Shown one piece after another: positions 9,767 to 47,656 of a stretch of DNA of 64,000 nt. The DNA is taken from positions 14,521 through 78,520 of the forward strand of contig JAKLIA010000002.1 of NCBI GenBank assembly GCA_022709865.1, in the 5' to 3' direction. The notes beneath the pieces are model-generated. The model saw only the letters and a list, made by a program, of their open reading frames with translations. It was not told where the DNA came from and ran no database searches. The DNA is from Patescibacteria group bacterium. GTDB taxonomy: Bacteria > Patescibacteriota > Minisyncoccia > Portnoybacterales > GWB1-42-6. The first letter of the stretch is position 1, and every line of letters starts with the position of its first letter. A program made the translations under genes and the position numbers.

Positions 9767-10053
9767 TTGCGCAAGAGCGTGATTCCTTATGCACTTATTA
9801 TCCGCCTTAATACTTGACAAGCTTTTAGACACTTGGTATCACTAATATATTAGAAATCTAGACATGTTCAAGAAGGGTTGTTTAGGTTTTTTTATTTATA
9901 AAATTAATAATATAAAGTGAAGGCAATGAAGCTCAGTCTTTATGTGGACGCCTAGACCGAGTGGAGCCAACGGCGTAACCGCTCACTCAATAAAGACTGT
10001 TCTGGCGGGCTGATTCCACAATTTACTCGCGGAAACAGCACTTTATAAAAAAA

Positions 10054-18979: not shown

Positions 18980-19073
18980 TTCTTTGAGCTGTTTTGTTGA
19001 TTATTTTTTCGAATAGATTATAATTTAATAAGTTCTTTTTTATCCACAAAAATACTAAAAAAGGAGATTGTTT

Positions 19074-19244
19074 ATGGTGCAGCCGAAGATTGAGTCTTAT
19101 AAAAATGAAATAAACGACATCAAAGAAAAAATGTACAATGAGAGCAAGAGAGTTTCTTTAAGAAAGAGAAAAAGACGCTTAAAAAGAATTGACTTATTGA
19201 TGAGCAAAATAAACGATACTAATTTTAGGGAAGCAAATCCCTAA
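19074..19244 (+). CDS. Small basic ORF (56 aa), hypothetical
   Basis: ATG at 19074, 7 nt downstream of a canonical AAGGAG. Product MVQPKIESYKNEINDIKEKMYNESKRVSLRKRKRRLKRIDLLMSKINDTNFREANP is Lys/Arg-rich with a coiled-coil-like N-terminus. Below the 60-aa ORF-track cutoff. Confidence 0.35.
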   Translation: MVQPKIESYKNEINDIKEKMYNESKRVSLRKRKRRLKRIDLLMSKINDTNFREANP

Positions 19245-19349
19245 ACTCTTTAATGCCTTGGGCAACAATAATGCCTGGGGCATTTTTATTTTTATTGAAA
19301 TAGGGTTATTTTAAAAGCAGGGGATAAACAGGAGACAAAAGAGAAATTA

Positions 19350-20447: not shown

Positions 20448-20452
20448 CTATC

Positions 20453-21598
20453 ATGATGAAAAAGAACATAAAAGATATTCTTGGCTGTTTGCCTAAAGCC
20501 TTATTTGGCAATTTTATGATCGGCGCGGGCGCTTTATCTTTGGGCATTATCTTGGGTGGGCCTAAAATCTATATTTCTCTTAATACCGCAATCATTTCTT
20601 TTGCAGTTTTATTGGCTCTATATATTGTTTTAACTTGGTGGAGCGTTTGGGCATTATCTAGGGGGTGCAAAAACGACAATCTTTCTGAGCTAGTTATTAA
20701 TGGACCGTATGCGCTGACTAGAAATCCAATGTACGCGGCGATAATTTTTATTTTAAATCCGGCGCTAGGGATCCTTTTCCGTTCCTGGCTGTTATTTATA
20801 GCAATTATCCCGATCTATTTTTTTTGGCGCAAATGCGTGATAGCGGAAGAGCGAGGTTCGCTAACTACTAAGTTCGGCGCGGCGCACGAAGAATATTTAA
20901 AAACTACTCCGCGATTTTTTCCTAATTTTCGCCGCGTTAGCCCATTTTTATCCTATGGCCTAATCGGCATTTTTATCTTCTCGGTCAGTTTTATCTTTTT
21001 GAACTTTAACGCGCTGTATTTGCGCTGGGTGGTTTTTGAAACTAATGGCAAGATCACTTACGATGAGCCGGCTCCTAAAATGAGCGTTTTTCCGTCTACC
21101 CAATCGGGGAGTTTAACGACTAATAAAACGCCTTATTCGACTGAAACGCCCAATATCAATAGCGTAGAATATAATGCTAACGCCAATATGATAATCATTA
21201 GTCGTCTTGGCATTCGAGCTCCTTTGGTTATGGCTAGCGGCACAACCCAGAAGCAATTAAACGAATCGTTGAATCAGGGCGTAATAATCTATCCGGGCAG
21301 CGCTTTACCCGGGCAAAATGGTGAACTTGTTTTGTCGGGCCATAGTTCAATATTTCCATGGGTAAAAACCCAATACGGCCAAGTTTTTACTCTGCTGGAT
21401 AAACTTCAAGCAGGGGATACGGTTTCGGTGATATATAACCATCGCCAATATGATTACCAAATTACGGGGCAGGAAGTGTTGAATCCAAACCAAGTAAAAA
21501 TAGCCGAATCGGCTACACCGGCATTAAAAATGACAACTTGCTGGCCAATTGGCACTTCGGCTAAGAGATTGGTTGTTTATGGAGCGTTGATTCAGTAA
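20453..21598 (+). CDS. Fusion protein: N-terminal ICMT/PEMT-like membrane methyltransferase-family domain plus C-terminal sortase (transpeptidase) domain
   Basis: N-terminus: 4-5 TM helices with NGPYALTRNPMYAAII and EERGSLTTKFGAAHEEYLKTTPRFFP (ICMT family RHPxY and EE...Y motifs, with His replaced by Asn). C-terminus: sortase fold motifs LVLSGHSS (catalytic His), LKMTTCWP (TLxTC catalytic Cys), AKRLVV (Arg). Start taken at the in-frame ATG 20453, just after the upstream stop at 20447. Confidence 0.75.
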   Translation: MMKKNIKDILGCLPKALFGNFMIGAGALSLGIILGGPKIYISLNTAIISFAVLLALYIVLTWWSVWALSRGCKNDNLSELVINGPYALTRNPMYAAIIFILNPALGILFRSWLLFIAIIPIYFFWRKCVIAEERGSLTTKFGAAHEEYLKTTPRFFPNFRRVSPFLSYGLIGIFIFSVSFIFLNFNALYLRWVVFETNGKITYDEPAPKMSVFPSTQSGSLTTNKTPYSTETPNINSVEYNANANMIIISRLGIRAPLVMASGTTQKQLNESLNQGVIIYPGSALPGQNGELVLSGHSSIFPWVKTQYGQVFTLLDKLQAGDTVSVIYNHRQYDYQITGQEVLNPNQVKIAESATPALKMTTCWPIGTSAKRLVVYGALIQ

Positions 21599-21611
21599 AA
21601 CTCCAAGGGGC

Positions 21612-21641
21612 TTGACAAGAATAGATAAAATAGTATATAAT
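21612..21641 (+). promoter_or_regulatory. Sigma70-like promoter upstream of the secreted-protein and lipoprotein genes
   Basis: TTGACA at 21612-21617, 17-18 nt spacer, TATAAT-like ATATAAT at 21635-21641. Confidence 0.45.
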
Positions 21642-21725
21642 ACAAGATTACAGAAAAGGGTAGTAAATAAGAGAAAAAAAGGCAGTTCTTTAAACAAAAA
21701 AATAAAGAGATAAGGAGGCTAGACC

Positions 21726-22100
21726 ATGAAAAAGACCGTTATTACTATTTTCGTGTTAGCGGTATTGTTGGTGGGTAGCGGTCAAGTTTTTGGTTGCTCC
21801 CTCTGTGATAGGCTTACAAAGCTCGGTTATTCTAACCAGGAAATTGTAAGCATCATTAGCGGCAGCGCTACGCGCGCTGAAGCTGAAGACAGGATGCGGC
21901 AAGTGATTCTTCGGGGCGGAAACGTTCCTGTGAAAATGGCCCGTTATTCGCCTAACCGATCTGTTTTAGTTCCGTCGCAAAAAGCGAAAATACCAGATCT
22001 TTTTCCGGAGCAAAAACAAAAATACAAATATTCGGAAGAGGAACAAGAGGTTCCTCCGATGAATGGATCGGCCATGGCCGAAACGAAAAAGAGGAGGTAA
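21726..22100 (+). CDS. Small secreted hypothetical protein (signal peptide, CxxC, Lys/Glu-rich tail)
   Basis: RBS AAGGAGG 6 nt upstream. Cleavable N-terminal signal MKKTVITIFVLAVLLVGSGQVFG. Confidence 0.5.
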   Translation: MKKTVITIFVLAVLLVGSGQVFGCSLCDRLTKLGYSNQEIVSIISGSATRAEAEDRMRQVILRGGNVPVKMARYSPNRSVLVPSQKAKIPDLFPEQKQKYKYSEEEQEVPPMNGSAMAETKKRR

Positions 22101-22104
22101 GAAA

Positions 22105-22830
22105 ATGAAGAAGGAATATTTGTTGTTGAATGTTATTTTCTTGTGCCTCTTGTTTTTCCAAGGCTGCACAGGATTAATAGTCTCGCGCGCGGATGCGCCC
22201 GAGGAAATCATAATGCGGGAAGCTAAAACGGTAAAAGCCACGGAGCCTTATGAGGTGGACCAAAAACTTCTGCCGGCCAGAATGGATTTAATTTCTTCGA
22301 TTCCCCAAGGGGAATATAAGAAATTAAAGCTTGGCGGCAATCCCGTTGGCCCGGTATCCAAAAATACTGTGAAAAAACTTCAGGACGAAGCCCGAGAGTC
22401 AAAATCAGTCATTTTTATCAATAGAGAAAAAATGATAATTGAGACTCAAGGCGGCAACGGCAAATGGTATCGTGGTTGGGTAGAGCCTGAAACTGTTTTT
22501 CTAGCTAAGGCTAATTATGATGCTTCCACCGGCATTACCGAATATGAATTATATAAGCTCGGTATTTGCTGGAACCCGGTGCGAAATGTAAAAGTTCGCC
22601 AATTGCCGGTAATCTTGAAGATCACAGAACGATATCGCGATACGACAAAACAAATTATCGAACAGCGGTATCGAGACACCGACTATACGCCTGCTCTTTG
22701 GGCAGGGCTTGGAGGGCTTGCAGTTGGCGGCGTGCTTGGTTGGATATTGCATCCGGCGGCCACGACAACGGTTATTACTAAGACCCTCGGTTGTATCGGC
22801 GGTCCTGCACCCCTTCCCTTAGTTCCTTAA
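22105..22830 (+). CDS. Putative lipoprotein, hypothetical
   Basis: RBS GAGGAGG 7 nt upstream of the ATG at 22105. Signal with lipobox-like LFFQGC. Gly-rich hydrophobic C-terminus. Confidence 0.55.
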   Translation: MKKEYLLLNVIFLCLLFFQGCTGLIVSRADAPEEIIMREAKTVKATEPYEVDQKLLPARMDLISSIPQGEYKKLKLGGNPVGPVSKNTVKKLQDEARESKSVIFINREKMIIETQGGNGKWYRGWVEPETVFLAKANYDASTGITEYELYKLGICWNPVRNVKVRQLPVILKITERYRDTTKQIIEQRYRDTDYTPALWAGLGGLAVGGVLGWILHPAATTTVITKTLGCIGGPAPLPLVP

Positions 22831-23000
22831 CTCTTTATTTATCCAGGCGAGGCGCAAAGACAAAAAATCTTTAGCGCTTCGCCCTTCTACTTTTTTTCAT
22901 AAAAAATTGCGGAAAAAAGTAGGAGAAAAAAATAATTCACCCTGTTAAATAATTGCTTCGCAATTCCTGCGCAGCAGAAATTAACAGGATAAATAAAAAT

Positions 23001-25493
23001 ATGAAAAAGATAATTTCCATTTTAACCGTATTTTTAACTATAAGCGCTATCGTAGCGCCGATTTTGGCGAACGCCGATGGCTCACCGCAATTTAATATTC
23101 AGAGCGGTGATCTAAAAACATTAGCCGTGGCCAACAGAACCACCGCTACCGGCTGGCAGGATAACAGCGTATCCGCTAGCAGCAATAATAGCGTGGCTTT
23201 TAGGGTTTATTATCACAATGGAGTGATAGATTCAGTGGCCCATAACACTCGGGTCCGCTTAACGTTTTCCAATAACGCCCAAAGCACCATTACGGTAAAC
23301 GCGGCTTTAAGCGCCGACAACGCGCCGACAAAAAATGACAGCGTGATTATCTATAGTTCTCCGGCGCAAACATTAGCCATGGAAACTAGCTCGATTCGCT
23401 GGTACCCGAACCAATCAACAACTCCGACCTATGTTTCGGCGACTTCTTATGGTTCAAATTATATTGAGTTAAATATTGGAGATATTCAAGGCTGCTGGCC
23501 ATATCAGGGTTATATTACTTTTATTGGTAATTTATCTCCTGTTGCTACTCCCACCCCGACTCCAACTCCGACCCCTACACCTACTCCTACCCCAACACCT
23601 ACCCCAAACTTAAATTACAACCTAACTGTCAGCAAGACCGTTCGGAACCAATCAAGCGGAACTAGCTATGGGTATAGCACCAGCGCTGTTTTAAATGATA
23701 CTTTAAACTTTCAAATTAGCGTTGTTAACACCGGAAACACCTCGTTAAGCAATGTTGTGGTGAGGGATAATATTCCTTATCCTTTAACTTACGTTAACGG
23801 CTCAACCAATGAAAATGGCTCTTATTTGGCGGATGGCATAACCGGCAACGGAATAAATATCGGCTCGTTAGCGCAAGGCGCCACCAGGACGATCACTTTT
23901 AGCGCTTTAGTAAATTATTATTATTCCTCTCAGACTGCCACTAACTATGGGTATGCCCGCGCGGACAATGTGAGCGAGAAGAGTTCCTCAGCTTATATTT
24001 ACTTATCTTCGGCAACTCCGACCCCGACTCCAACACCTGGTTATAGTTATTTAACTATCAATAAAACCGTCCGCAATTTAACTAGCGGCACAAGCGGCTA
24101 TATGGAAAGCGTAAATGCTAATGGTAATGACCGCATATCTTTCCAGGTTCAGATCCAAAATACCGGCAATACCACGCTGAATAATGTTTATGTCTATGAT
24201 ACTTTGCCTAGCTACCTTTCTTATGTTTCGGGCTCAGCTCGATTAGATGGTTCATATATGTCTGATGGAATAGTTTCCGGCGGAGTGAATATCGGTTCGC
24301 TGTCTTCAGGCTCTACCAGAACCATAGTTTTTGAAGTTACGGCTAACTATTATTCGTATGCTTCAAACCAAAACTTGATTAACTACGCTTATGCCCGCGC
24401 GGACCAAGTAAGCGAGCGCAGCGATACAGCCACAGTGTATTTGGGCCAAAGTTATAGCCAAGGAAATCTTAATATTTCCAAGACCGTCCGCAATACAACC
24501 ACCGGCACAAGCATGCAAAGCTCTGTTAATGCCAGCATCGGCGACCGAGTGATGTTTTTAATTCAAGTCTCAACGCCTTCAAGCTTAGGTAATCTTTATA
24601 ACGTGCGCGTTTGGGATACTTTGCCTTCCGGTTTAACTTATGTTCCGGGCTCAACCCGCATTGATAATGCTTATACCAGCGACGGCTTAACAACCGGCGG
24701 AATAAGCTTAGGCACGATGTCTGCCAACCAAAATCGCAGCATTAACTTTGAGGCGACAGTCAATTCTTATGGCGGCGCCCAAACCATTACTAACTATGCT
24801 TATGCTTCGGCGGATAATGTTGGCCAGCAGTCATCTTTTGCGCAAGTGGTAACGACCACAGGCTCGGCTTCAACTGTTTATGTTCCGGCAGCGACAATTT
24901 CTACTTCCGGATTGACTAAACGGGTAGATAATTTAACTTCCGCCAATGGAACGCAAACCGATAACACGGCTTCTGTGGGCCATGCCTTAAAATATACTTT
25001 GAGCTACTATAACAGCGGCTCTAGCATATTAACCAATGTCCGGTTCGTTGATACTTTGCCTTCATATACGACTTTTGTCAGCGCTGATAATGGCGGCAGC
25101 TATAACGCCAGCACTAATCAAATAACTTGGTATATGGGCAGCTTGTCTTCAGGTGCTACCGCTACTGTTTCTTATCAGGTTAATGTGATGCAGGTGCCGT
25201 ATAACGGCTATGTTATTGCCAATAGCGCGGCTTTTGCAGCTGATAATTTAAGCGCTATCAATTCCAACGAGGTTCGCACGACTGTGTCGACCGGCGTGGT
25301 CTTAGGCGCATCAATTGCGGCTGTCACCGGCAGCAACGACTTGGCGCGCAATATAGCTATTTCTCTGATGGTTTCTTTATGGGGCATATTCTTGGTATAT
25401 CTCTACAATGAATACGGCCTAGCGATCAATTGGAACAAACTAAAGTTTAAGTTCGCGGTTTGGCGGATTAGGGTTAAAGAAAAGTTGATGTAA
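23001..25493 (+). CDS. Cell-surface protein with four DUF11 (conserved repeat domain) modules joined by Pro-Thr linkers. C-terminal TM segment plus basic tail.
   Basis: Signal peptide (MKKIISILTVFLTISAIVAPILANA). Repeated TVRN..SGTS...V.NTGNT.L.NV.V.DTLP..L.YV.GS....G.Y..DG...GG...G domain (x4), which is the DUF11 pattern. (PT)n linkers at 23546-23606 and 24012-24037. C-terminal ...AAVTGSN...TM...KLKFKFAVWRIRVKEK. Confidence 0.8.
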   Translation: MKKIISILTVFLTISAIVAPILANADGSPQFNIQSGDLKTLAVANRTTATGWQDNSVSASSNNSVAFRVYYHNGVIDSVAHNTRVRLTFSNNAQSTITVNAALSADNAPTKNDSVIIYSSPAQTLAMETSSIRWYPNQSTTPTYVSATSYGSNYIELNIGDIQGCWPYQGYITFIGNLSPVATPTPTPTPTPTPTPTPTPTPNLNYNLTVSKTVRNQSSGTSYGYSTSAVLNDTLNFQISVVNTGNTSLSNVVVRDNIPYPLTYVNGSTNENGSYLADGITGNGINIGSLAQGATRTITFSALVNYYYSSQTATNYGYARADNVSEKSSSAYIYLSSATPTPTPTPGYSYLTINKTVRNLTSGTSGYMESVNANGNDRISFQVQIQNTGNTTLNNVYVYDTLPSYLSYVSGSARLDGSYMSDGIVSGGVNIGSLSSGSTRTIVFEVTANYYSYASNQNLINYAYARADQVSERSDTATVYLGQSYSQGNLNISKTVRNTTTGTSMQSSVNASIGDRVMFLIQVSTPSSLGNLYNVRVWDTLPSGLTYVPGSTRIDNAYTSDGLTTGGISLGTMSANQNRSINFEATVNSYGGAQTITNYAYASADNVGQQSSFAQVVTTTGSASTVYVPAATISTSGLTKRVDNLTSANGTQTDNTASVGHALKYTLSYYNSGSSILTNVRFVDTLPSYTTFVSADNGGSYNASTNQITWYMGSLSSGATATVSYQVNVMQVPYNGYVIANSAAFAADNLSAINSNEVRTTVSTGVVLGASIAAVTGSNDLARNIAISLMVSLWGIFLVYLYNEYGLAINWNKLKFKFAVWRIRVKEKLM

Positions 25494-34934: not shown

Positions 34935-35204
34935 ATGAAACTATTTATAAAAAAATTATTGAACAACAGAATAGTTTCTTTTTTTATCCGTGGCCTGAAA
35001 AAAATTAGCCGCGGACTTAATTTTATTATTAACACAGCTCTTCTGTTAATTGTTTATATCTTTGGCGTTGGATTAACATGGCTCTTTGCCAAGATCCTAA
35101 AAAAGCACTTTCTTGAAATGCAACCCTCCAAAAACCGGCAAACATATTGGTCTGATGCAGAATTAAGAGGATCCGATGTAAGCGATTATTATAGGCAATT
35201 TTGA
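34935..35204 (+). CDS. Small membrane protein upstream of the carbamoyltransferase (possibly SxtJ-like), hypothetical
   Basis: 89 aa with one central TM helix. Position immediately 5' of the NodU/CmcH-family carbamoyltransferase. Confidence 0.4.
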   Translation: MKLFIKKLLNNRIVSFFIRGLKKISRGLNFIINTALLLIVYIFGVGLTWLFAKILKKHFLEMQPSKNRQTYWSDAELRGSDVSDYYRQF

Positions 35205-35208
35205 AACA

Positions 35209-36927
35209 ATGTATATTCTCGGCCTTAGCTGTTTTTATCACGATTCATCAGCTGCCTTATTAAGGGACGGCAAAATTGTGGCTGCTGCCGAAGAGGAAAG
35301 GTTTACCAGAAAAAAACACGATAGCTCTTTCCCTCTGAGCGCAATAAATTATTGTTTAAGCAGCCAAGGCATAACTATTAATGACATAGCTTATATAGGT
35401 TTTTACGAAAAGCCGTTTTTAAAGTTTGAGCGGCTTTTATCCCAATATTTAGAAACCTTTCCAAAGGGATTGTGGTCTTTTGTAAGCACACTGCCTATCT
35501 GGTTCAGCCAGAAATTGCGCCTTATAAAAATTGTCCGCAAAAAATTAAAATATAAAGGGAGCGTTTTATTTGTGCCGCACCACCTGGCGCATGCTGCCAG
35601 CGCTTTTTTAATAAGCCCATTCCAAAAAGCCGCTATTTTAACGATTGACGGAGTAGGCGAGTGGTCAACGACAACTTATGGAATAGGCGAAGAAAACGAG
35701 ATCAAGCTGTTAAAACACCTGGCCTTTCCTCATTCCTTGGGTCTGCTATATTCGGCTATCACGGCCTATCTTGGCTTTAGGGTGAACAACTGCGAATATA
35801 AAGTAATGGGGCTCAGCGCTTACGGAGAAAGCGATAAGGACAAAAACCAATATTATAAAAAGCTAAAAAATACCATTGATATAAAGGCTGACGGCAGCTT
35901 CTGTTTGGATATGGATTACTTTTCTTATTGTTTTGCCCAAAAAATGCCGTCAAAAAAACTTTGCCAATTATTGGGCTTGCCGATCAGGAAAGCCAGCGAA
36001 GAACTAACCCAAAGCCACAAAGATATTGCCGCTGCCTTGCAGACGATTACCGAAGAGGTGATCATGAAAATAATCAATCACCTGCATAAAGAAGTTGCTT
36101 GCGAGAACTTGGTGCTGGCTGGCGGCGTAGCTTTAAACAGCGTTTGCAACGGTAAGATCTTAAAAAATGCTCCTTTTAAAAATATTTGGATACAGCCTAA
36201 CGCTTCCGACGGTGGAACAAGCATCGGCGCAATATCCTATATATATAATTCTTTGCTTGGCAACGCCAGAAATTATCAGATGGAGGATGCTTTTCTGGGG
36301 CCATCTTTTTCAAACGAGGAGATAAAAACATTTTTAGATAAAGAAAAAATAAGCTACCAATTTCTTGGCGATAGCGAACTTGTAGAAATAGGCGCAAAAT
36401 TAATATTCGAAAATAAAATTATAGGCTGGTTTCAAGGAAGAATGGAGTGGGGCCCTAGAGCCTTAGGGAATAGAAGCATATTGGCCAACCCCTTAAATCC
36501 CGAGATGAAAGATATTCTAAATAGCCGCATTAAACACCGGGAATCGTTCCGGCCATTTGCGCCGGCTGTTTGCGAAGAATCTGTTTCAACTTATTTTGAA
36601 TGCGATAGCCCCTTGCCTGAAGCCGCCCGGTATATGCTTTTGGTCTATCCCATAAAAGAAGCGTGGCGCAGCGACTTGCCAGCTGTAACGCATTTTGACG
36701 GCACCGGACGTCTGCAAGCTGTGAATAAGGACCGAAACCCCTTATTTTATCGATTAATAGAGGAGTTTAAAGCTTTATCCGGCTTCTCGGTAATTTTAAA
36801 TACCTCTTTTAATACAAATAATGAGCCTATAGTTTGCACGCCAAGCGAAGCGTGGAATTGCGCCAAGCGCGCCGGGCTTAATTATTTGGCCATAGGCAAC
36901 TTTCTAATTAAACTAGATGAAAAATAA
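35209..36927 (+). CDS. Carbamoyltransferase, NodU/CmcH/NolO family
   Basis: Hallmark N-terminus MYILGLSCFYHDSSAALLRDGKIVAAAEEERFTRKKHD, the HHLAHAASAF motif, and a YrdC/Kae1-like C-terminal domain (RMEWGPRALGNRSIL). Confidence 0.9.
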   Translation: MYILGLSCFYHDSSAALLRDGKIVAAAEEERFTRKKHDSSFPLSAINYCLSSQGITINDIAYIGFYEKPFLKFERLLSQYLETFPKGLWSFVSTLPIWFSQKLRLIKIVRKKLKYKGSVLFVPHHLAHAASAFLISPFQKAAILTIDGVGEWSTTTYGIGEENEIKLLKHLAFPHSLGLLYSAITAYLGFRVNNCEYKVMGLSAYGESDKDKNQYYKKLKNTIDIKADGSFCLDMDYFSYCFAQKMPSKKLCQLLGLPIRKASEELTQSHKDIAAALQTITEEVIMKIINHLHKEVACENLVLAGGVALNSVCNGKILKNAPFKNIWIQPNASDGGTSIGAISYIYNSLLGNARNYQMEDAFLGPSFSNEEIKTFLDKEKISYQFLGDSELVEIGAKLIFENKIIGWFQGRMEWGPRALGNRSILANPLNPEMKDILNSRIKHRESFRPFAPAVCEESVSTYFECDSPLPEAARYMLLVYPIKEAWRSDLPAVTHFDGTGRLQAVNKDRNPLFYRLIEEFKALSGFSVILNTSFNTNNEPIVCTPSEAWNCAKRAGLNYLAIGNFLIKLDEK

Positions 36928-38014
36928 ACTGAAACTCTTTACTAAAAACATCTTATTACTAATAGCAACTTGTTTAGTTGTTTTTGCCGTTGCTGAATGC
37001 TTATCCAGGCTGTTTTTTAAGCCGCAAGAGCTTTTTAACGATGTTATTATAACGGCTCCTAAAAATACCGTGGTAAATAAAGATAATGGGCTTTCTTATA
37101 ATTTAACCACCAAGAAATTATTGACAGATAGATATACTCAATTTTTTTCTAATAATCCGCTTATAAAAAAAGAAAAACCGCCAGGAACATACAGAATAAT
37201 CACTCTTGGCGATTCGTATACTCGTGGGGCAGGCACTAAAAATATTTATGATGACAGCTATAGCATCCAATTGATGAAATTATTAAATAGCGGCCAAGAA
37301 ATAAAGGGTATTAGCAATTTTGAGATCCTGCCGATTTGCTATGATGGACTTAACACTTATCAGGAGCTTATTTTACTGCAAGAAATAGCGTTGGCCTATA
37401 ATCCGGATCTGGTCATTTTGCAATACACCGATAACGATGTTGAATACCCCCGCAATGAGATTGGGATAATGAAAAGTTCCGCGGAACATAAAAACGGAGA
37501 GTATTTTCAGTTTCAAAAGTTTTCAAGAATGAACTTTATTATCTATGACAATATATTTATCCCCGCACTGCCTCATTTTGATAACGAACTTGGCTGGCGA
37601 ATGCTAAAATATTCTAACTTTCTTCGCTTTGTCTCTTATAAATTAAATTATATTTTGCGGGAAGAAGAGGTTCCGGAAAATGATATAAACTCCAGCTTCA
37701 AATCTCTTGAAAAGATATCCGAGATAACAAAAGAAAAAAATATTCCCTTGATAATGTTCTATTTTCCGCCAGCGTCATGGACAGAAAATTATTGTGGCAC
37801 CAGGAACGCTGATTTTAGAAAAAGCCTAGCCGCCGAAGCTGCCAAGCTTCAAATTAAATATTTTTCAATGTGCGATTATGTGGCGGACATTAATTCGATC
37901 AGGGGCTTAACCGATGCTCCAAGCAACAACCATTATAATAAAGAAGGTTATGGTATTGCCGCCGAAGTCTTGAAGAACGGGGTTATTGATATTATTAATG
38001 TTGGTATTAAATAA
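36917..38014 (+). CDS. SGNH/GDSL-hydrolase-like protein with N-terminal TM anchor (paralog 1 of 3)
   Basis: N-terminal TM. GDS(L) block IITLGDSYTRGAG. C-terminal His block SNNHYNKEGY. Tandem with two paralogs. Confidence 0.6.
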   Translation: MKNKLKLFTKNILLLIATCLVVFAVAECLSRLFFKPQELFNDVIITAPKNTVVNKDNGLSYNLTTKKLLTDRYTQFFSNNPLIKKEKPPGTYRIITLGDSYTRGAGTKNIYDDSYSIQLMKLLNSGQEIKGISNFEILPICYDGLNTYQELILLQEIALAYNPDLVILQYTDNDVEYPRNEIGIMKSSAEHKNGEYFQFQKFSRMNFIIYDNIFIPALPHFDNELGWRMLKYSNFLRFVSYKLNYILREEEVPENDINSSFKSLEKISEITKEKNIPLIMFYFPPASWTENYCGTRNADFRKSLAAEAAKLQIKYFSMCDYVADINSIRGLTDAPSNNHYNKEGYGIAAEVLKNGVIDIINVGIK

Positions 38015-39103
38015 ATGGCAGGAAAATTAAAGCCGTTATTAAAAAACATACTGCTCTTATTGGCTGCTTGTGCGTTCTTTTTTTTATGCGCCGAGATAGC
38101 TTGCCGGCTGTTTTATGATGAAAAAGTTAATTATACTCCTTGGATATGGGAAAAGCTGCAAGAAGATGGCGCAAAAACTTTTTCCCTCACAGATCAAGAT
38201 ACTTATGTTAATAAAGATAATGGCTTATATTATTTGTTAGATAGCAATTCTTTAAATAAACAGAGATACGCCAGATTTAATTACCAAAAGACAGTAAAAA
38301 AAGAAAAAACAGCAGAAGAATACCGCGTTGCCATCATTGGCGATTCTTTTACCGGCTCTTCTGGTTTATCTCCCGATGAAAAAAACTATACAGCCATGCT
38401 ATCAGAGGCCTTAAATAATGCTGGCCAAAAAAGTTTTAATATCCTTCCTTTTTCCGAAGGGGGAATAAATACCTATCAAGAATTAACTATACTGAAAGAG
38501 TTCTTAGGAGATATAAAGCCCGATTTAGTTGTTCTCCAATATTGCGATAATGACGTTGAAGCGATAAAAACTCCCTATGGAGTAAACAACCATAATCTTT
38601 GGATCGATAGCCGAACAGATCCCATAATACTTGATAAACAAATCGTTCCCGCGCTGCCGTATTTGCCTAAAAGCCTAAGCAAGTTTTTATTGAGCAATTC
38701 GGCTTTCTGGCGTTTTTTTTCTTATAAATTAAATATCATTTCCACTTATTATGTCGACGCCACTGACACAAACTCAAGCCTCGAATCCTTAAAACAGATG
38801 AAACTGCTGCTGGCTAGCAAAGGAATCCCTCTGGTGGTTATCGATTTTCCGCCCGCGGTTAACGAACAAGATTATTGCGGCTATGTGTCTGGGGAGGGTG
38901 GGAAAAAACTTCAAGATGAGATCAGAAAGATGGCCGTAGAATTAAACTTTTCTTTCTTGAGCTTATGTGATTATGTTGATGATATCCATTCTTTGCAATC
39001 CAGCATAGAAAGCAACCATTATCACTATAATACGGAAGGCCATCGCCTTGCGGCCGAAGCGCTAAAAAAAGAGATATTAAACATAACAAAGAATGAAGAA
39101 TAG
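38015..39103 (+). CDS. SGNH/GDSL-hydrolase-like protein with N-terminal TM anchor (paralog 2 of 3)
   Basis: AIIGDSFTGSSG and SNHYHYNTEGH blocks. Same length and organisation as the flanking paralogs. Confidence 0.6.
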   Translation: MAGKLKPLLKNILLLLAACAFFFLCAEIACRLFYDEKVNYTPWIWEKLQEDGAKTFSLTDQDTYVNKDNGLYYLLDSNSLNKQRYARFNYQKTVKKEKTAEEYRVAIIGDSFTGSSGLSPDEKNYTAMLSEALNNAGQKSFNILPFSEGGINTYQELTILKEFLGDIKPDLVVLQYCDNDVEAIKTPYGVNNHNLWIDSRTDPIILDKQIVPALPYLPKSLSKFLLSNSAFWRFFSYKLNIISTYYVDATDTNSSLESLKQMKLLLASKGIPLVVIDFPPAVNEQDYCGYVSGEGGKKLQDEIRKMAVELNFSFLSLCDYVDDIHSLQSSIESNHYHYNTEGHRLAAEALKKEILNITKNEE

Positions 39104-40124
39104 ACTTCTAAAAAATATTATTTTAATTATTATTTCCCTTTTGATAACGCTGTTTTTTTTGGAAACTATTTTTAAGATTTGGGAGATCGATAAAAACATA
39201 AACGGCTCTGTGGTTTGGCCAGAGATAAACCGAATAAGCGGAGAAGGTTTGAATAATAGTTATATAAAAAAAGACAATGGCCTCTCCTACAAATTAGAAG
39301 ATGATAGCCTAAACGAAGATTTGTATATTCTTTTTGATAAGAGCCATTTTACCAAAACTAAACCGCCCGGAGTTTACCGAATAGCCATAGTCGGCGATTC
39401 TTATACCTGGATACCTAAAAATATCGATTGGATAAAGTTTTATGCCCCGCAATTAACAGAAATGCTGTCTAAAGAAAAAACGCTTTTCGAAGTTTTGCCG
39501 TTCGCCCAGCCCGGGCTAAACACCGAGCAGGAGTTCACTATCATCAAAGAGCTCGCTTTAAGTTATAATCCCAACCTAGTGATCCTCCAGAGCACAAACA
39601 ACGACAATGAATTGCCTAGAGCCTCCTTGCGTTTAGGCCCATCCACAGAATACGTAATTTCTAAAAGCGAAGTTATCGTCATTAACAACCGCGCTATTCC
39701 GGCTTTTTCTTTTTTGAGCCATAAAATAAACCTATTCATCCTTCAAAACTCGTCCTTCTTGCGCTATATCGCTTATAATTGGAACGTTATATTATATAAA
39801 TATCAGGCTCAGCCCTGGCAAAAAAATCTTGATACCATAAAAGAAATAAAAAAAATTACGGAAGAAAAAAATATTGATTTTTTAGTTATTTTTACTCCAT
39901 CAGCATTGAATAACCCCTGCGCCGAAGAAACCATTAAAAGCTTGGGCGAACAATTTAAGAGCCTGAGCGAAGAGATCAAAACCCCTATCCTTAATCTTTG
40001 TGATAATGTTCTGGATTTTAGCGCTTATAAGGCTAAGGAAGGGGACGGCCACTACAACACCGAAGGATATAAAATAGTAGCCGAAGCTTTAAAAAACGAG
40101 ATATTAAAAATAATAAAAAAATAA
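39093..40124 (+). CDS. SGNH/GDSL-hydrolase-like protein with N-terminal TM anchor (paralog 3 of 3)
   Basis: IAIVGDSYTW and DGHYNTEGY blocks. Confidence 0.6.
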   Translation: MKNRLLKNIILIIISLLITLFFLETIFKIWEIDKNINGSVVWPEINRISGEGLNNSYIKKDNGLSYKLEDDSLNEDLYILFDKSHFTKTKPPGVYRIAIVGDSYTWIPKNIDWIKFYAPQLTEMLSKEKTLFEVLPFAQPGLNTEQEFTIIKELALSYNPNLVILQSTNNDNELPRASLRLGPSTEYVISKSEVIVINNRAIPAFSFLSHKINLFILQNSSFLRYIAYNWNVILYKYQAQPWQKNLDTIKEIKKITEEKNIDFLVIFTPSALNNPCAEETIKSLGEQFKSLSEEIKTPILNLCDNVLDFSAYKAKEGDGHYNTEGYKIVAEALKNEILKIIKK

Positions 40125-40128
40125 ACAT

Positions 40129-40290
40129 ATGCCAGAAAATAAAAGTTTCCTGATAGAGCTTTGGGATTTTTTAAAGATCCGTAAAAAATGGTGGCTGTTG
40201 CCGATCATTATTATGTTAGCTCTGGTAGGCCTTCTGATCATTTTTGGCCAAGAAAGCGCACTTTCGCCTTTAATTTATACGATTTTTTAA
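40129..40290 (+). CDS. DUF5989-like micro-protein (53 aa) of the kind found next to carbamoyltransferases (SxtK-like)
   Basis: Below the ORF-track cutoff. Product MPENKSFLIELWDFLKIRKKWWLLPIIIMLALVGLLIIFGQESALSPLIYTIF has the L..LW.FLK.RKKWWLLPI...L.LGLL...G.S...PFIYTLF pattern I recall for DUF5989. Tightly packed between its neighbours (5-nt and 1-nt gaps). Confidence 0.55.
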   Translation: MPENKSFLIELWDFLKIRKKWWLLPIIIMLALVGLLIIFGQESALSPLIYTIF

Positions 40291-40291
40291 T

Positions 40292-42043
40292 ATGGCCGCA
40301 CTGAGCGGATACTTGAAAAATATTGCCCTGAACATAAAAAAAATAGCTCTGTTGCCGGCTAATTTTGTTTTGTTAACCGCTGTTTTAATAATTTTGACAG
40401 TTTTTTTTAATAAACAAATCCTGGCTGATTATCTAACAATAAGGCCTTTTTTTAGCTACTATTTTTTTGGGGCTATAATCCTTTTGATAGTCGCTATTAT
40501 AGTTTTGGCAACTATTAACTGGAAACGGTTAAAGTTAGTGCTAGTTCAAGACAAATATTTAATAGTTTTAATTATTATTTTATTGGCTATTTTAGTCGGA
40601 TTGATCATGGCTGGGCCGGTTCTGGTCAGGGTAGACAAAGAAACGTCCGCTGTCTTGGGGAGCCTGGACTTTGAATTAAACGCCTTATCATCTTTTTCGG
40701 TAATTTTTCGCGCTAAAGCATATTTTTTAATAATGCATTTTTTGGCATATATTATGCCCATAACGATAAAAAGCCTGTCTGTGATAAATGCTTTTTTGAT
40801 AGTTTTTCAGATGTTATTAGTGTATTTAATATTAAAATTGCTGCTGAATAATAATCGCCTAGCTTTTCTAGCCAGCCTTTTATTCATATTTTATCCCAAC
40901 AATTTATTGATCGGGCGGGCGCCAGACTATGCTTTTGCTGGGCAGATCTTCGGCACCTTTAGCTTGTTTACGCTGCTTCTTTTTGTAAAATACAAAGACC
41001 GGCTTTTGCTTTTTTGGAGCTTGGCTATTTTGAGCTTGTCTTTGTTTTTGAGAATAGAGATGATCTTTTGGCTGCCTTTCTATCTTTTTCTTTTATGGCG
41101 CAATTTAGATGATGAACAAATAAGGAAAATCAAGAACATTATTAATGTTTTTCTTTTGCTAAGCCTGCCCTTAATGCTGGCAACGATCATTTGTTTTTTT
41201 ATCAGCCCAACCGGTTCGATTTCTGATGTCAGCTTTTACAACTTAAGGCTGACTAGCGGCTGGAATCTTTTACAGCAAATAACAAATTACTATCATTTTG
41301 TTATAGACAGAAACTTAGCCTTTAATTTGAGCTATCTGATTTTTGCCATACCTCTTTTTTGGATTACGCCTTTGGCTTTAGTGTTTTTTCGCGATAAAAA
41401 GATATGGGATTACATATTATATTTTTTCTTTTTTTGGGCTATCATTACTGTTTTCCATTGTAACGAAAGAATCGATTCTTATGAGTTCCTTTCTTATTTA
41501 ATAGTTCCTCTGGTAATTTTGGCTGGTTTGGTTATAGGGCATCTTTCAAAAATCCATAAATACGGCTGGTTGGCTTCTGCCGCCTTAGTCCTGTTTCTTA
41601 TCATTTTTGGCTTTAAGCTCTATCAGCCAGCTTGGTTTTTCACTGATAACGTCACAATTTTTTGGAATAACGAATACCAGCTTATAGAAAAACATCTGGG
41701 CCAAATAAATAATGACTCAGTTATTATTACTAATGATAAAATAAGCTTGATCTCTTCGGTGGTAAACAAAAAAAACGAAAAGATCGTCCAGGCCTTGCCC
41801 GATATAACTAAACAGATCAAGGAGCTAAAAAACAAGTATAATAATGTTTTTGTTATACAAGGCTCGCTTAACGCTTCCCGGCCAAGCATATCGACTTTTG
41901 AAGCAAATCAATTTGAAAAAATAATAAAAGATAATTTTAATTTGGAAGTGGTCTATCGGGAAAGGCTCGGAGAAGACGGCTTAAACCAGCCCGGAATAGC
42001 ACCGATAAAAAACGCTTTAATTTTTCTATACAAGATTAACTAA
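40292..42043 (+). CDS. Large polytopic membrane protein (about 11 TM helices plus a 170-aa C-terminal soluble domain). Putative GT-C-fold glycosyltransferase or related glycan-modifying enzyme.
   Basis: 583 aa, dense hydrophobic helices through about residue 410, then a hydrophilic C-terminal domain. This architecture is shared with ArnT/PMT-type GT-C enzymes. No family-specific motif recognised. Confidence 0.55.
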   Translation: MAALSGYLKNIALNIKKIALLPANFVLLTAVLIILTVFFNKQILADYLTIRPFFSYYFFGAIILLIVAIIVLATINWKRLKLVLVQDKYLIVLIIILLAILVGLIMAGPVLVRVDKETSAVLGSLDFELNALSSFSVIFRAKAYFLIMHFLAYIMPITIKSLSVINAFLIVFQMLLVYLILKLLLNNNRLAFLASLLFIFYPNNLLIGRAPDYAFAGQIFGTFSLFTLLLFVKYKDRLLLFWSLAILSLSLFLRIEMIFWLPFYLFLLWRNLDDEQIRKIKNIINVFLLLSLPLMLATIICFFISPTGSISDVSFYNLRLTSGWNLLQQITNYYHFVIDRNLAFNLSYLIFAIPLFWITPLALVFFRDKKIWDYILYFFFFWAIITVFHCNERIDSYEFLSYLIVPLVILAGLVIGHLSKIHKYGWLASAALVLFLIIFGFKLYQPAWFFTDNVTIFWNNEYQLIEKHLGQINNDSVIITNDKISLISSVVNKKNEKIVQALPDITKQIKELKNKYNNVFVIQGSLNASRPSISTFEANQFEKIIKDNFNLEVVYRERLGEDGLNQPGIAPIKNALIFLYKIN

Positions 42044-43107: not shown

Positions 43108-43329
43108 CTATTTTTTATTGAATATTTGCTATCCCATCCCATTCGTTGAGGGGGCGAAGGGGGAGCGTAGCTCCCGCCTTGGCGGAAACATTAAAACCGA
43201 GGGGTTTTAAGGAGTGAGAAGAAAAACGACGAACGACAGAATGGTGGTTATGCTTGTAGATTGGCAGAGATGGGGGAACAGATAGCCAAATAATAGCTTT
43301 CTGAAAAACCGATGGAGGGACATAAGATT

Positions 43330-44958
43330 ATGAAGATCCTATTTATTTTTCCTTTTATAAACACTAAGGGAGGCGATCCTATTAAGTTTTTGCCAATTGG
43401 CCCAGCGGCTTTAATTGGAACTTTGAAGCCAGATTTTCCAGAAATTATATTTGAGCAAATAGAACTAGAAGAAGAAATAAGAGAAAAAAAGAGACAAGGA
43501 AAGATTGATAAAAAATACGAAAAATTATTAGAGAGCTTTAATCAGAATAAAGCTCTTTTTCCGTCTAGCAATGCTGTAAAAGAATATAAAGGGTTTTTTG
43601 ACAAATTAATTAATTTTTTTCAAATAGACCAATACGACCACTACTTTTTTTCTCGCTATGATGACGATTGCGGCCTAAGAGCTAATCTTTTTTTTGCCAA
43701 ATATTTAAAAAGCCTTTTTCCTGACAAAAAAATTATTTTTGGCGGAATTAATAACGCTAGAAGCAATGAAATCGACAATAGCCTTTTTAATAGTTTGAAC
43801 TTCATTGATTCTTTTATAGTTGGTCCGGGAGAAAAATCAATGAGGCTAATTTTGCAGAAGCTTTTAGATAGCGAAAAACTAGATACAAAATATTCTTTTT
43901 GGGTTTCGCCTCAAGAAAAAATTAAAAACCTTCCCGACTACAAAAGCAATCGGAGTTTATCCCTTTTTAAGCACTCGGTAAAAGAACTGGAAGGCAAAGA
44001 GGGTGGCTCAAAAAACTTAATATCAATACCGTATTATTTTTCAATTGGCTGTTTTTGGAGTCAATGCGCTTATTGCGCTAACTCGCACTTTAAGGGGTCT
44101 AGCCCCAGCCAAAAACAAGCGCATAAATCAATTGACCAGATAATCTCTGATTTGACCAGACTAAAGAAAGATTATAAAACAAAGCATTTTATTTTTTTTA
44201 ATCAAAACTTTAATTTTGACCTGGATTTCACTAAGCAACTATTAAAAAGGATCATAAGCGAGAAATTAGATATTTTATGGACGGATTATTTTAATTTAAC
44301 GATTTTTGACGAAGAGTTGCCCAGCCTTCTAACTCAGGCGGGGTGCTATCGAATAGATCTTGGAACTGTCACTTTTAATGATAAGCTTCAAAAGCTTTAT
44401 AGTAATTTATTTAAAAATCAACAGCTCAAATATTTAAAATATATCAGCGACGCCGGAATATGGATTAACTTAAACATCATCGCCAATCTCCCTTATTCTT
44501 ATTCAATAGAGGGAGAAAAGAAGGTATTGAAAAACTATTTAAAATATTTTGATTCGGCAGACATTAATTTTTATAGGAACTTTTCTATTTCTGATTTAGC
44601 CTTAAATTATCGCTTCTACGATTTAAAAACCGCTGATAAAAAAATAGTTTTTAAAGAAGGATTGACCGGCAATTTATCGTTTATCGAAAAAAATGGAGGC
44701 AAAAGCGTAGACGAAAAAGCGGTAATCTCGCAAAAAAACTACTTAGATTGGGAAAGATTTTTAATTAAAAACGGCAAGGTAATAAATAACCATAATTTTG
44801 CCTATTTATCGTATTTGTACGATGCCCATGGTTTTAATAATAAAGAAAGAATCAAAAAACTTTTCTGTTCTGCCAAGAATAATACCTGTCTGCTACCAAA
44901 AGAATCAAAAGATAAAGTAGGGCCAAAGGGACGGCTATCTTTAGTTAAAAAGCCCTAA
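43330..44958 (+). CDS. B12-binding-domain / radical-SAM-like protein with a non-canonical Cx4Cx2C cluster motif (hypothetical)
   Basis: N-terminal MKILFIFPF... (B12-binding-radical-SAM-like start). Putative cluster motif GCFWSQCAYC. Start set at ATG 43330; an alternative is the upstream in-frame ATG at 43312. Confidence 0.45.
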   Translation: MKILFIFPFINTKGGDPIKFLPIGPAALIGTLKPDFPEIIFEQIELEEEIREKKRQGKIDKKYEKLLESFNQNKALFPSSNAVKEYKGFFDKLINFFQIDQYDHYFFSRYDDDCGLRANLFFAKYLKSLFPDKKIIFGGINNARSNEIDNSLFNSLNFIDSFIVGPGEKSMRLILQKLLDSEKLDTKYSFWVSPQEKIKNLPDYKSNRSLSLFKHSVKELEGKEGGSKNLISIPYYFSIGCFWSQCAYCANSHFKGSSPSQKQAHKSIDQIISDLTRLKKDYKTKHFIFFNQNFNFDLDFTKQLLKRIISEKLDILWTDYFNLTIFDEELPSLLTQAGCYRIDLGTVTFNDKLQKLYSNLFKNQQLKYLKYISDAGIWINLNIIANLPYSYSIEGEKKVLKNYLKYFDSADINFYRNFSISDLALNYRFYDLKTADKKIVFKEGLTGNLSFIEKNGGKSVDEKAVISQKNYLDWERFLIKNGKVINNHNFAYLSYLYDAHGFNNKERIKKLFCSAKNNTCLLPKESKDKVGPKGRLSLVKKP

Positions 44959-45399: not shown

Positions 45400-46902
<1,503 letters not shown>

Positions 46903-47081
46903 CTAGATTTTTTTATTTACTTTATGTAAATGCATCTTCTAGAAAAGTGTCGATTATTCTGTTTACAGAGTAGGTCGCGGCGTAGACCTTAAATTCGCTG
47001 GTTCATAATTGTGTAACCCTTAAATGACCAATTCGAGATAACTAAAAGAACCTAATTGTGGAATTGCGAAATAACAAAAAA

Positions 47082-47108
47082 TGCCTCTTGATTTGAGGCG
47101 TTTTTTTG
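47082..47108 (+). terminator. Hairpin plus T-tract downstream of the 16S gene
   Basis: GCCTC-TTGATTT-GAGGC followed by TTTTTTTGTT. Confidence 0.4.
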
Positions 47109-47142
47109 TTTATAATAAAAACTGCGTAAATAAGGGCGATTA

Positions 47143-47428
47143 GCCCCTCACTTGAAAAGGATATGTTTTATGTTTATGTCCTAAAAAGTGAAGTAGATGA
47201 TAAACTGTATATTGGCTATACAGATGATCTACGACGCAGAATTGAAGAACATAGCAAAGGAAAGTCAAAGGCAACAAATCCAAGGAAACCATTTAAGCTG
47301 GTTTATTACGAGGCCTACTTCTCCCGAAGCGATGCTAAATATAGGGAAAGTCAATTAAAAAGATTTTCTGGTTCATACACACATCTGAAAAGAAGAATTA
47401 AAAATTCAATCCTTTTCAAGTGAGGGGC
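47143..47428 (+). mobile_element. GIY-YIG ORF cassette bracketed by a perfect 20-bp inverted repeat, inserted at the 5' end of tRNA-Ile
   Basis: Left arm gcccctcacttgaaaaggat (47143-47162) and right arm atccttttcaagtgaggggc (47409-47428) are exact reverse complements. The 11-nt gggcgattagc is directly repeated at 47134-47144 and 47425-47435; the second copy is the start of tRNA-Ile. Confidence 0.5.
47163..47423 (+). CDS. Small GIY-YIG nuclease-family protein (86 aa)
   Basis: MFYVYVLKSEVDDKLYIGYTDDLRRRIEEH: the GIY-(10 aa)-YIG spacing and the conserved Arg and Glu of the GIY-YIG fold. The stop codon lies inside the right IR arm. Confidence 0.8.
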   Translation: MFYVYVLKSEVDDKLYIGYTDDLRRRIEEHSKGKSKATNPRKPFKLVYYEAYFSRSDAKYRESQLKRFSGSYTHLKRRIKNSILFK

Positions 47429-47498
47429 GATTAGCTCAGGTGGTTAGAGCGCGTCACTGATAATGACGAGGTCCGAGGTTCAACTCCTCGATCGCCCA
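47425..47498 (+). tRNA. tRNA-Ile (anticodon GAT)
   Basis: GGGCGAT acceptor, D-arm AGCTCAGGTGGTTAGAGC, anticodon loop CTGATAA, T-arm GGTTCAACTCC, 3' ATCGCCC plus discriminator A. CCA not encoded. Confidence 0.9.
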
Positions 47499-47565
47499 CA
47501 AAAAAAGGGAGAGACAAAAAACTGTCCCGATAAACCTCCTTTTTAAGGAGGTCATTTTGTATCAG

Positions 47566-47638
47566 GGGCCGATAGCTCAGTTGGTAGAGCACCTCGTTTG
47601 CAACGAGGGGGTCTGGAGTTCGAATCTCCATCGGTCCA
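47566..47638 (+). tRNA. tRNA-Ala (anticodon TGC)
   Basis: Acceptor GGGCCGA/TCGGTCC with the G3:U70 Ala identity pair. Anticodon loop TTTGCAA. T-arm GGAGTTCGAATCTCC. Confidence 0.9.
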
Positions 47639-47656
47639 CTTTTCTTTTATCAATTT

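Follow-up and report, generated by a model that had tools for sequence, protein, structure and literature searches.

An archaeal-type carbamoyltransferase operon in a Patescibacteria bacterium belongs to a widespread module with SxtJ and DUF5989 proteins

Why should a Patescibacteria group bacterium carry a carbamoyltransferase gene in one operon with esterase-like and membrane proteins? The question is raised by a seven-gene locus within a 64,000-nucleotide stretch of its genome (hereafter the window; GenBank assembly GCA_022709865.1, contig JAKLIA010000002.1, positions 14,521 to 78,520 of the forward strand), for which an initial annotation made from sequence had proposed a system for glycan O-carbamoylation and modification. 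In order, the genes encode a small membrane protein (tm89), a carbamoyltransferase (CT), three paralogous proteins of SGNH-esterase type (SG1, SG2 and SG3), a DUF5989 micro-protein and a large polytopic membrane protein. Our analysis places this locus, an archaeal-type copy with rearranged and additional genes, in a widespread and unstudied module that joins CT to SxtJ and to SxtK, for which DUF5989 is our candidate, frequently with SGNH genes as well. The proposal of glycan modification is supported as far as computation allows, the substrate and the chemistry being its conjectural parts.

The CT is, judged from its domains and motifs, a NodU/CmcH/TobZ-family O-carbamoyltransferase of predicted activity, as the initial annotation had recognized. 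Its Kae1-like N-terminal and YrdC-like C-terminal domains match Pfam Carbam_trans_N (E 5.9e-83, 279.6 bits, cut-off 24) and Carbam_trans_C (E 1.4e-70, 236.7 bits, cut-off 27), and the protein aligns full-length (residues 8-570) to the solved carbamoyltransferases 7xb6 (E 1e-93), GdmN, NovN and TobZ (E 4e-79), with the motifs PHHLAH, DG, SDGG and GPRALGNRS all in register. Enzymes of the TobZ/NodU type use carbamoyl phosphate and ATP for O-carbamoylation, and TobZ, NovN, GdmN and NodU act alone, on soluble antibiotics or Nod factors. The CT in the window resembles these enzymes in both Pfam domains, in full-length alignment (E values of the order of 1e-79 to 1e-93) and in the HHxxH and GPRALGxRS motifs, the latter of which is named in bioRxiv 10.64898/2026.06.11.731795, but it belongs to a subfamily that is co-encoded with two small membrane proteins. 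It has neither a transmembrane segment nor a signal peptide and is predicted to be cytoplasmic. The description of all partners as envelope-facing therefore does not extend to the CT itself.

The association with small membrane proteins proved to be general. Scanning a DUF5989 alignment against 185,579 species genomes yielded confirmed matches in at least 523 species, and among the 80 loci with the best-scoring matches, CT adjoins DUF5989 on the same strand in 77. CT, SxtJ and DUF5989 constitute a conserved, near-obligatory triad that is present in many bacterial phyla and in DPANN archaea, and the view of the locus as a peculiar assembly of the candidate phyla radiation (CPR) has to be abandoned. 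Two arrangements prevail. In type B, found in many bacterial phyla, CT is followed by SxtJ (~135 amino acids) and DUF5989 (50-52 amino acids), and all 15 of the type-B open reading frames (ORFs) tested between CT and DUF5989 match Pfam SxtJ. In type A, a truncated SxtJ precedes CT, which is followed by DUF5989 with or without SGNH genes between them. The type-A sample consists of 24 archaeal-labelled loci (Woese-, Nano- and Pacearchaeota, and metagenome-assembled genomes labelled Methanosarcinales) and a single one from Patescibacteria. By its gene order, the window operon is of type A, that is, of the DPANN-archaeal type.

Recurrence extends beyond the triad. The full seven-gene set, including the GT-C gene, is found again in two other loci (L003 and L004) whose CTs are 58-62% identical to that of the window. 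This recurrence, together with the adjacency of CT and DUF5989 in nearly all loci, indicates that the arrangement of the operon is not due to chance. An iterated hidden Markov model (HMM) search located SGNH genes of one coherent family within 10 kb of the triad in 43 of 77 loci. The linked SGNH genes are usually adjacent to the triad and often lie between CT and DUF5989, an arrangement shared by the window, L003 and nine or more further type-A loci.

No mention of DUF5989, PF19451 or PF19588 was found in the literature searched, and searches for SxtJ outside saxitoxin and for carbamoyltransferases in Patescibacteria returned nothing relevant. The partner proteins of other phyla are likewise not covered by any NCBIfam model. 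By profile-profile comparison, tm89 is a truncated, single-pass SxtJ homolog that retains just the last transmembrane helix and the conserved C-terminal tail (...YW...YYRQF). Aligning 18 tm89 orthologs with 15 Pfam-SxtJ proteins in hhalign gave a probability of 98.2% (E 3.4e-14), with tm89 residues 21-89 mapping onto SxtJ 72-140, the C-terminal half only, and with YW...Y[YE]RQF as the common C-terminal end. This kinship, which the initial annotation had suggested checking, is detected only in this way, as the Pfam SxtJ HMM (PF19588) gave zero matches at E <= 1 to tm89 or its 17 orthologs and the NCBIfam SxtJ model found nothing on tm89. Full SxtJ proteins comprise about 130-140 amino acids and are encoded between CT and DUF5989; tm89 departs from this architecture in having 89 amino acids, one transmembrane helix and a gene upstream of CT. 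A gene of the tm89 type stands immediately 5′ of CT in 27 type-A loci.

The identity of the micro-protein was as annotated. It matches DUF5989 (PF19451) with an E value of 7.3e-22 and 77.6 bits (gathering threshold 27) over profile positions 2-49 of 49. Across phyla and domains the mean column identity of this protein of about 50 amino acids is 68%, a degree of conservation that is unexplained. With 4.0 lysine and arginine residues before the transmembrane segment and 0 after it, DUF5989 is predicted to be a single-pass protein with its N terminus inside and its C-terminal tail outside.

The same gene types are adjacent in saxitoxin clusters, where sxtI encodes an O-carbamoyltransferase (1839 bp, 612 amino acids), sxtJ and sxtK encode proteins of 134 (405 bp) and 54 (165 bp) amino acids, and sxtL encodes a GDSL lipase (1281 bp, 426 amino acids) (PMC2679770, PMC2684587). 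SxtJ and SxtK are uncharacterised and hypothesised to act with SxtI (PMC2679770), a description that still holds in bioRxiv 10.64898/2026.06.11.731795, while SxtL is proposed to cleave the carbamoyl group, making it a decarbamoylase (PMC2885083, PMC2679770). All four gene types are present in the window operon in a rearranged order, and type-B loci match the sxt cluster in both order and sizes. Because type-B loci reproduce the saxitoxin gene order and sizes, SxtK is probably a DUF5989 protein, and by the same analogy of gene order and size SxtL would correspond to the SGNH family of the window. The 120 DUF5989 clusters listed, from a total of at least 8000, are all termed ‘hypothetical’ or ‘DUF5989 family’, and none is named SxtK. 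The window operon differs from the saxitoxin genes in that its SxtJ is cut to 89 amino acids and placed 5′ of CT, CT and DUF5989 are separated by three SGNH genes, a GT-C gene follows at the end, and the context of the module is one of glycan or housekeeping genes rather than toxin genes. We infer that sxtIJKL is a co-opted copy of an ancient, mobile CT-SxtJ-DUF5989(-SGNH) module.

A census of neighbouring genes supports the claim that these are envelope-glycan rather than natural-product neighbourhoods. Among 134 ORFs neighbouring type-A triads, the leading families are Lipase_GDSL_2 (14), Radical_SAM (11), Epimerase (9), family 2 glycosyltransferases (GT2; 9), Polysacc_synt_2 (8) and GT1 (7), accompanied by nucleotide-sugar dehydratases, GT4, methyltransferases and Wzx flippases. 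The 107 ORFs near type-B triads include 13 GDSL proteins as well as GT2, GT4, GT9, AlgX-like proteins, exosortase and Wzy_C. SGNH/GDSL proteins are the most frequent neighbours of the triad in both censuses, and polyketide synthases and nonribosomal peptide synthetases (PKS/NRPS) are absent from the 25 commonest families in either (241 neighbouring ORFs in total). Synteny with a known natural-product cluster had been named beforehand as grounds against an envelope role; the gene set is indeed that of sxtI-J-K-L, which touches this objection, but glycan families dominate the surroundings, and we rejected the label of natural-product cluster.

Comparisons of CT sequences bear on how the operon reached its host. 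The CT of the window is 61-64.5% identical to DPANN archaeal copies (compared with loci L009-L038) but 43-49% identical to other bacterial copies, those of the CPR groups Peregrinibacteria and Peribacteria included, and the closest homologs of its SGNH proteins include proteins of Aenigmarchaeota. The greater proximity of the CT to archaeal copies suggests that the module has been exchanged between DPANN archaea and CPR bacteria.

All seven ORFs were confirmed at the coordinates given by the initial annotation, each on the plus strand (Table 1). CT and SG1, and likewise SG2 and SG3, overlap by 11 nucleotides, in both cases with the sequence ATGAA[A/G]AATA[A/G]; SG1 and SG2 abut with zero gap. 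The remaining gaps measure 4 nucleotides (tm89 to CT, and SG3 to DUF5989) and 1 nucleotide (DUF5989 to the GT-C gene). A scan for promoters and terminators returned counts equal to the shuffled expectation and was uninformative. The 53-amino-acid ORF had been expected to escape gene callers, and it is indeed uncalled in the ENA record (L002) and in the Logan record (L003), but JGI called it. The operon is flanked by LemA/TPM genes on the upstream side and a GAPDH gene on the downstream side, which we rejected as members since they are not conserved in L003 or L004.

Table 1. Genes of the carbamoyltransferase operon and a possibly associated downstream gene (coordinates within the window)
Feature	Coordinates	Strand	Basis
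tm89, small membrane protein, 89 aa	34935-35204	+	ORF call
Carbamoyltransferase (CT), 572 aa	35209-36927	+	ORF call, Pfam
SG1, SGNH paralog 1, 365 aa	36917-38014	+	ORF call, paralog alignment
SG2, SGNH paralog 2, 362 aa	38015-39103	+	ORF call, Pfam, AlphaFold2 model
SG3, SGNH paralog 3, 343 aa	39093-40124	+	ORF call, paralog alignment
DUF5989 micro-protein, 53 aa	40129-40290	+	ORF call, Pfam
Divergent GT-C-fold membrane glycosyltransferase, 583 aa	40292-42043	+	profile relatives, fold
B12-binding-type (class B) radical SAM enzyme, possibly associated, weak link	43312-44958	+	likeness to L004/L005 genes

The three SGNH paralogs are colinear, mutually 36-40% identical (SG1 and SG2, 40%; SG3 and SG1, 36%) and all keep the GDS...HYN pattern. 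SG2 is the most conservative copy and passes the Lipase_GDSL_2 gathering threshold of 32.9 with 37.5 bits; SG1 falls just under it (30.4 bits, E 6.6e-7), and SG3, the most divergent copy, has a weak Lipase_GDSL match alone (E 0.004). The SGNH fold is borne out by an AlphaFold2 model of SG2 (pLDDT 87.9, pTM 0.86), for which Foldseek returned 107 matches in the PDB at E <= 1e-3, with target-normalised TM-scores of up to 0.79. The top matches are EstL5, TesA and acetyl-xylan esterases, and almost all of the top 50 are natural SGNH esterases or thioesterases, the exceptions being a few designed scaffolds and CgnD.

The catalytic residues only partly agree with the Ser-His-Asp triad that had been anticipated. 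The block I Ser, block II Gly, block III Asn and block V His are present in all three paralogs; in SG2 these are S111, G150, N179 and H337, none of which varies in the close family. Across the wider SGNH family, the Ser is kept in 71 and the His in 70 of 72 members. However, the Asp of DxxH, three residues before the His, is replaced by Ser in SG1, Asn in SG2 and Gly in SG3, implying either a Ser-His dyad or the use of another acidic residue. An N-terminal hydrophobic anchor is present in 59 of 60 family members with the GDS motif, with 4.0 lysine and arginine residues before it and 1.8 after it, and the catalytic domains are predicted to lie outside the membrane, held by this transmembrane anchor. 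The anchor carries, at what is predicted to be its outer end, a Glu (SG2 residue 27, window ~38093-38095) that is conserved in 63 of 72 members, as strongly as residues of the catalytic blocks in this CT-linked family, for reasons that are unexplained.

That the paralogs form a divergent but colinear tandem array was correct, although the array is not the product of a recent triplication. In a neighbour-joining tree without bootstrap, SG1-SG3 fall in one clade with homologs from L003 and L004, from Aenigmarchaeota, and with a fourth paralog (P0006, 371 amino acids, 38% identical to SG2) encoded in the same genome outside the window (L087, 10001-11116). In this tree P0006 is the sister of SG2, and SG1 and SG3 split off at deeper nodes, which suggests that the duplications are old and led us to reject a recent tandem triplication. 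Old duplications whose copies all have the catalytic residues are compatible with the sub-functionalisation that the initial annotation had suggested. In L004, one SGNH copy is split (5167-5475 and 6779-7075) by an insert of ~1.3 kb carrying a 159-amino-acid ORF, so paralog number appears to vary by decay as well as by duplication.

The last protein of the operon, which combines a polytopic N-terminal part of ~450 amino acids with a C-terminal alpha/beta domain, was described as GT-C-like, and this assignment stands on its relatives and its fold rather than on a Pfam PMT_2 match of its own. Pfam gave nothing significant on it, including PMT_2, and just a below-threshold match to TgpA_N (E 1.4e-4). 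An exhaustive profile search recovered only 91 relatives among 1.84 billion representatives. Among 65 distant relatives, PMT_2 is detected in 51, PMT in nine and STT3 in two, and the L003 homolog is called PMT_2. The protein has a GT-C membrane fold and keeps the residues most conserved in PMT_2-type relatives, namely a loop Asp, R254/E256 and three Pro. The first large outer loop offers a candidate acidic residue (RVDK, D115) that does not vary among close relatives, and 39 of the 65 distant ones have an Asp in the neighbouring alignment column, as judged by sequence alignment alone. We conclude that it is a divergent GT-C-fold membrane glycosyltransferase with a putative donor and acceptor as proposed below.

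With moderate confidence, we favor the reading that the seven genes form an operon for glycan tailoring at the membrane, centred on a conserved O-carbamoylation unit, with ester editing of a lipid-linked or surface glycan. This reading builds on the identities, folds, catalytic residues and synteny of the components, and on their predicted topology. The soluble CT would use carbamoyl phosphate and ATP to place a carbamoyl group on a sugar hydroxyl in the cytoplasm, most likely on a polyprenyl-phosphate-linked sugar or glycan. The truncated SxtJ and DUF5989/SxtK may hold CT at the inner membrane face, or may present the membrane-bound substrate to it. After export, the three outward SGNH enzymes would edit ester-type substituents, whether acyl or carbamoyl, on the glycan, and each paralog may serve a different position or substrate. 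The GT-C enzyme would then be expected to take a sugar off a polyprenyl-phosphate donor and add it to the last acceptor, which would be extracytoplasmic.

Known systems provide both precedents and contrasts for such a pathway. NodU is a precedent for glycan carbamoylation by this enzyme family. Another concerns an envelope glycan: WapO (PA5005) is a putative carbamoyltransferase for the Pseudomonas lipopolysaccharide core heptose and is encoded among glycosyltransferase genes, although SxtJ/DUF5989, SGNH and GT-C genes are not in the gene table of its cluster (PMC8005017); here the likeness is drawn by description, not sequence. Unlike ArnT/PMT_2-type GT-C enzymes of Gtr/Arn systems, the window protein falls below Pfam PMT_2 detection and belongs to a rare family, and the window lacks both a polyprenyl-phosphate GT2 and a GtrA/ArnEF-type flippase; three-component Gtr/Arn periplasmic glycosylation was rejected on the latter grounds. 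The outward, membrane-tethered SGNH domains encoded with glycan genes resemble those of AT3-SGNH and MBOAT-SGNH systems (OafA, OatA, PatA/PatB, AlgI/J/X), but the window operon has no translocator, and its cytoplasmic activating enzyme is a carbamoyltransferase. Neither an AT3 nor an MBOAT acyltransferase is present in the operon or among the top 25 neighbour families, and an O-acyl system of this kind was rejected.

Several observations weigh against the glycan-tailoring reading. The 80 loci were taken from the top of the score ranking and do not sample the family at random, and the substrate, the product and the interactions of the components are conjectural, as are what the small proteins do and which way the SGNH reaction runs. 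The positive-inside rule gives an ambiguous orientation for tm89, and the correspondence of DUF5989 and the SGNH family to SxtK and SxtL is drawn from gene order and size. No polyprenyl-phosphate GT2 or GtrA/ArnEF-like flippase is among the gene calls of the window from ~25.2 to 63 kb, nor did one turn up upstream; L003, L004 and L089 do carry GT2 genes. The structurally characterised relatives, TobZ, GdmN and NovN, are all natural-product enzymes that work without membrane partners, so SxtJ and DUF5989 are not needed for catalysis as such, and the saxitoxin carbamoylation substrate is a soluble small molecule, yet sxtJ and sxtK are kept. Finally, a GT-C/PMT_2-like gene lies within 10 kb of the triad in only 10 of 80 loci (about 12%), the locus of the closest GT-C homolog (L089, with PMT_2, GT2, DegT and B12-binding radical SAM genes) has no CT on its 12-kb contig, and P0006 adjoins a GT4 glycosyltransferase with no CT nearby. 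The operon could thus be two joined modules in one transcription unit, CT-SxtJ-DUF5989 and SGNH/GT-C (with or without the radical SAM gene), acting on different targets. We consider this improbable, given that SGNH genes sit inside the triad in many type-A loci, that the seven-gene set recurs where CT identity has fallen to 58-62%, and that start and stop codons overlap within the operon.

Other readings change the role of the SGNH enzymes or the product of the operon. If the SGNH enzymes were decarbamoylases, carbamoylation would be reversible or proof-read by three paralogs of differing specificity, in keeping with the role proposed for SxtL beside sxtIJK (PMC2885083, PMC2679770) and with the frequency of SGNH genes near the triad. 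This seems unlikely: the function of SxtL is itself a proposal, the SGNH family has been likened to it by gene order and size, not sequence, the CT and SGNH domains are predicted to be on opposite sides of the membrane, and P0006 stands beside GT4 without CT. A more elaborate scheme is a transmembrane carbamoyl relay, in which CT activates carbamate in the cytoplasm, the carbamoyl group, or a carrier bearing it, crosses the membrane by way of SxtJ/DUF5989, and SGNH transferases load the exported glycan. It would account for the coupling of CT to two small membrane proteins, for the anchored SGNH proteins so often embedded between CT and DUF5989, for the conserved anchor Glu and the strong conservation of both DUF5989 faces, and for the AlgX-like genes near type-B triads, and it would parallel O-acetylation by AT3-SGNH (OafA/OatA) and MBOAT-SGNH (PatA/PatB, AlgI/J/X) systems. 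However, AT3 and MBOAT translocators greatly exceed SxtJ and DUF5989 in size, tm89 has one transmembrane helix, carbamoyl-adenylate is labile, related enzymes such as TobZ transfer straight to the acceptor, and ~44% of loci have no SGNH gene within 10 kb, all of which makes the relay quite unlikely. There is a correspondingly small chance that SxtJ, DUF5989/SxtK and anchored SGNH proteins are a new membrane machine delivering carbamoyl groups or carbamoylated lipid-linked sugars to extracytoplasmic glycans; if true, it would be a carbamoyl counterpart of AT3/MBOAT-SGNH relays in many bacterial phyla and DPANN archaea, later co-opted for saxitoxin. We regard it as very improbable that the operon tailors a secondary metabolite, as clusters of the saxitoxin or aminoglycoside type do, and is not an envelope system. 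Its gene set is that of sxtI-J-K-L (PMC2679770), the best PDB matches of CT are natural-product enzymes, L003, L004 and L089 are rich in radical SAM genes, and L003 has a phosphopantetheinyl transferase gene. Against this, PKS, NRPS and other scaffold-forming families are missing from the 25 commonest among the 241 neighbours, where glycan genes dominate, the partners are membrane-anchored or of GT-C type, the host belongs to the CPR, has a small genome and carries peptidoglycan and UppS genes near the operon, and the PDB matches reflect what has been crystallised.

Radical SAM genes accompany several of these loci. The downstream gene listed in Table 1, which the GAPDH gene separates from the operon, shares ~25-33% identity with radical SAM genes that neighbour the SGNH/GT-C genes of L004 and L005, and genes like it also occur close to the triad in L014, L034, L035 and L068. 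Its NCBIfam matches are all sub-threshold and all to B12-binding radical SAM methyltransferase families. The copies of the operon in L003 and L004 lie within clusters that also hold GT2 genes and numerous radical SAM genes. The clusters of L003 (1-21083), L004 (1-21143) and L089 (1-11929) are unusually rich in the latter, with up to nine per 21 kb, among them B12-binding types and GT2-radical SAM fusion proteins, and also carry PMT_2 paralogs, DegT and phosphopantetheinyl transferase. They may represent an unusual glycan or lipid modification cluster, perhaps worth its own study.

The wider window includes further envelope genes within 6-33 kb of the operon (UppS, BacA and MraY-MurD-FtsW-MurG) and some features of separate interest. 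A c-di-GMP-II riboswitch (Rfam RF01786, 64 bits, gathering threshold 53.5) at 9910-9993 on the plus strand, preceded by a response-regulator ORF, lies ~60 nucleotides upstream of ORF 10054-17862, which encodes a 2602-amino-acid surface protein with beta-helix, NosD, Ig, fn3 and TIG domains, an arrangement suggesting that a CPR bacterium regulates a giant surface adhesin through c-di-GMP. It is followed at 17945-25493 by a run of secreted or surface genes encoding two CAP-domain proteins, a fusion of a sortase with a PEMT-like membrane domain, and an 846-amino-acid DUF11-repeat protein. The region 45400-47639 holds a complete 16S rRNA gene (45400-46902), an 86-amino-acid GIY-YIG ORF (~47163-47423), tRNA-Ile(GAT) and tRNA-Ala(TGC), after which come protein genes for acylphosphatase and UppS, with no 23S rRNA gene in the window. 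The rRNA genes look unlinked, and the spacer seems to hold a homing-endonuclease-like ORF. At 59656-61389, a GmrSD-type (type IV restriction-like) gene lies in the part of the window that is poorest in GC (33% at 60-62 kb) and may mark a small defence island.

The main addition to the initial annotation is the placing of this locus in a widespread module, whose core of CT, SxtJ and DUF5989 had not been recognized there as a conserved triad. It shifts the question of what SxtJ and SxtK do from toxin chemistry to envelope biology, where it is testable in tractable carriers of the module. Two further additions are a rare GT-C subfamily and an SGNH subfamily whose conserved anchor Glu is unexplained. 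For CPR bacteria and DPANN archaea, the findings point to a common, probably horizontally exchanged modification of surface glycans in cell-attached organisms.

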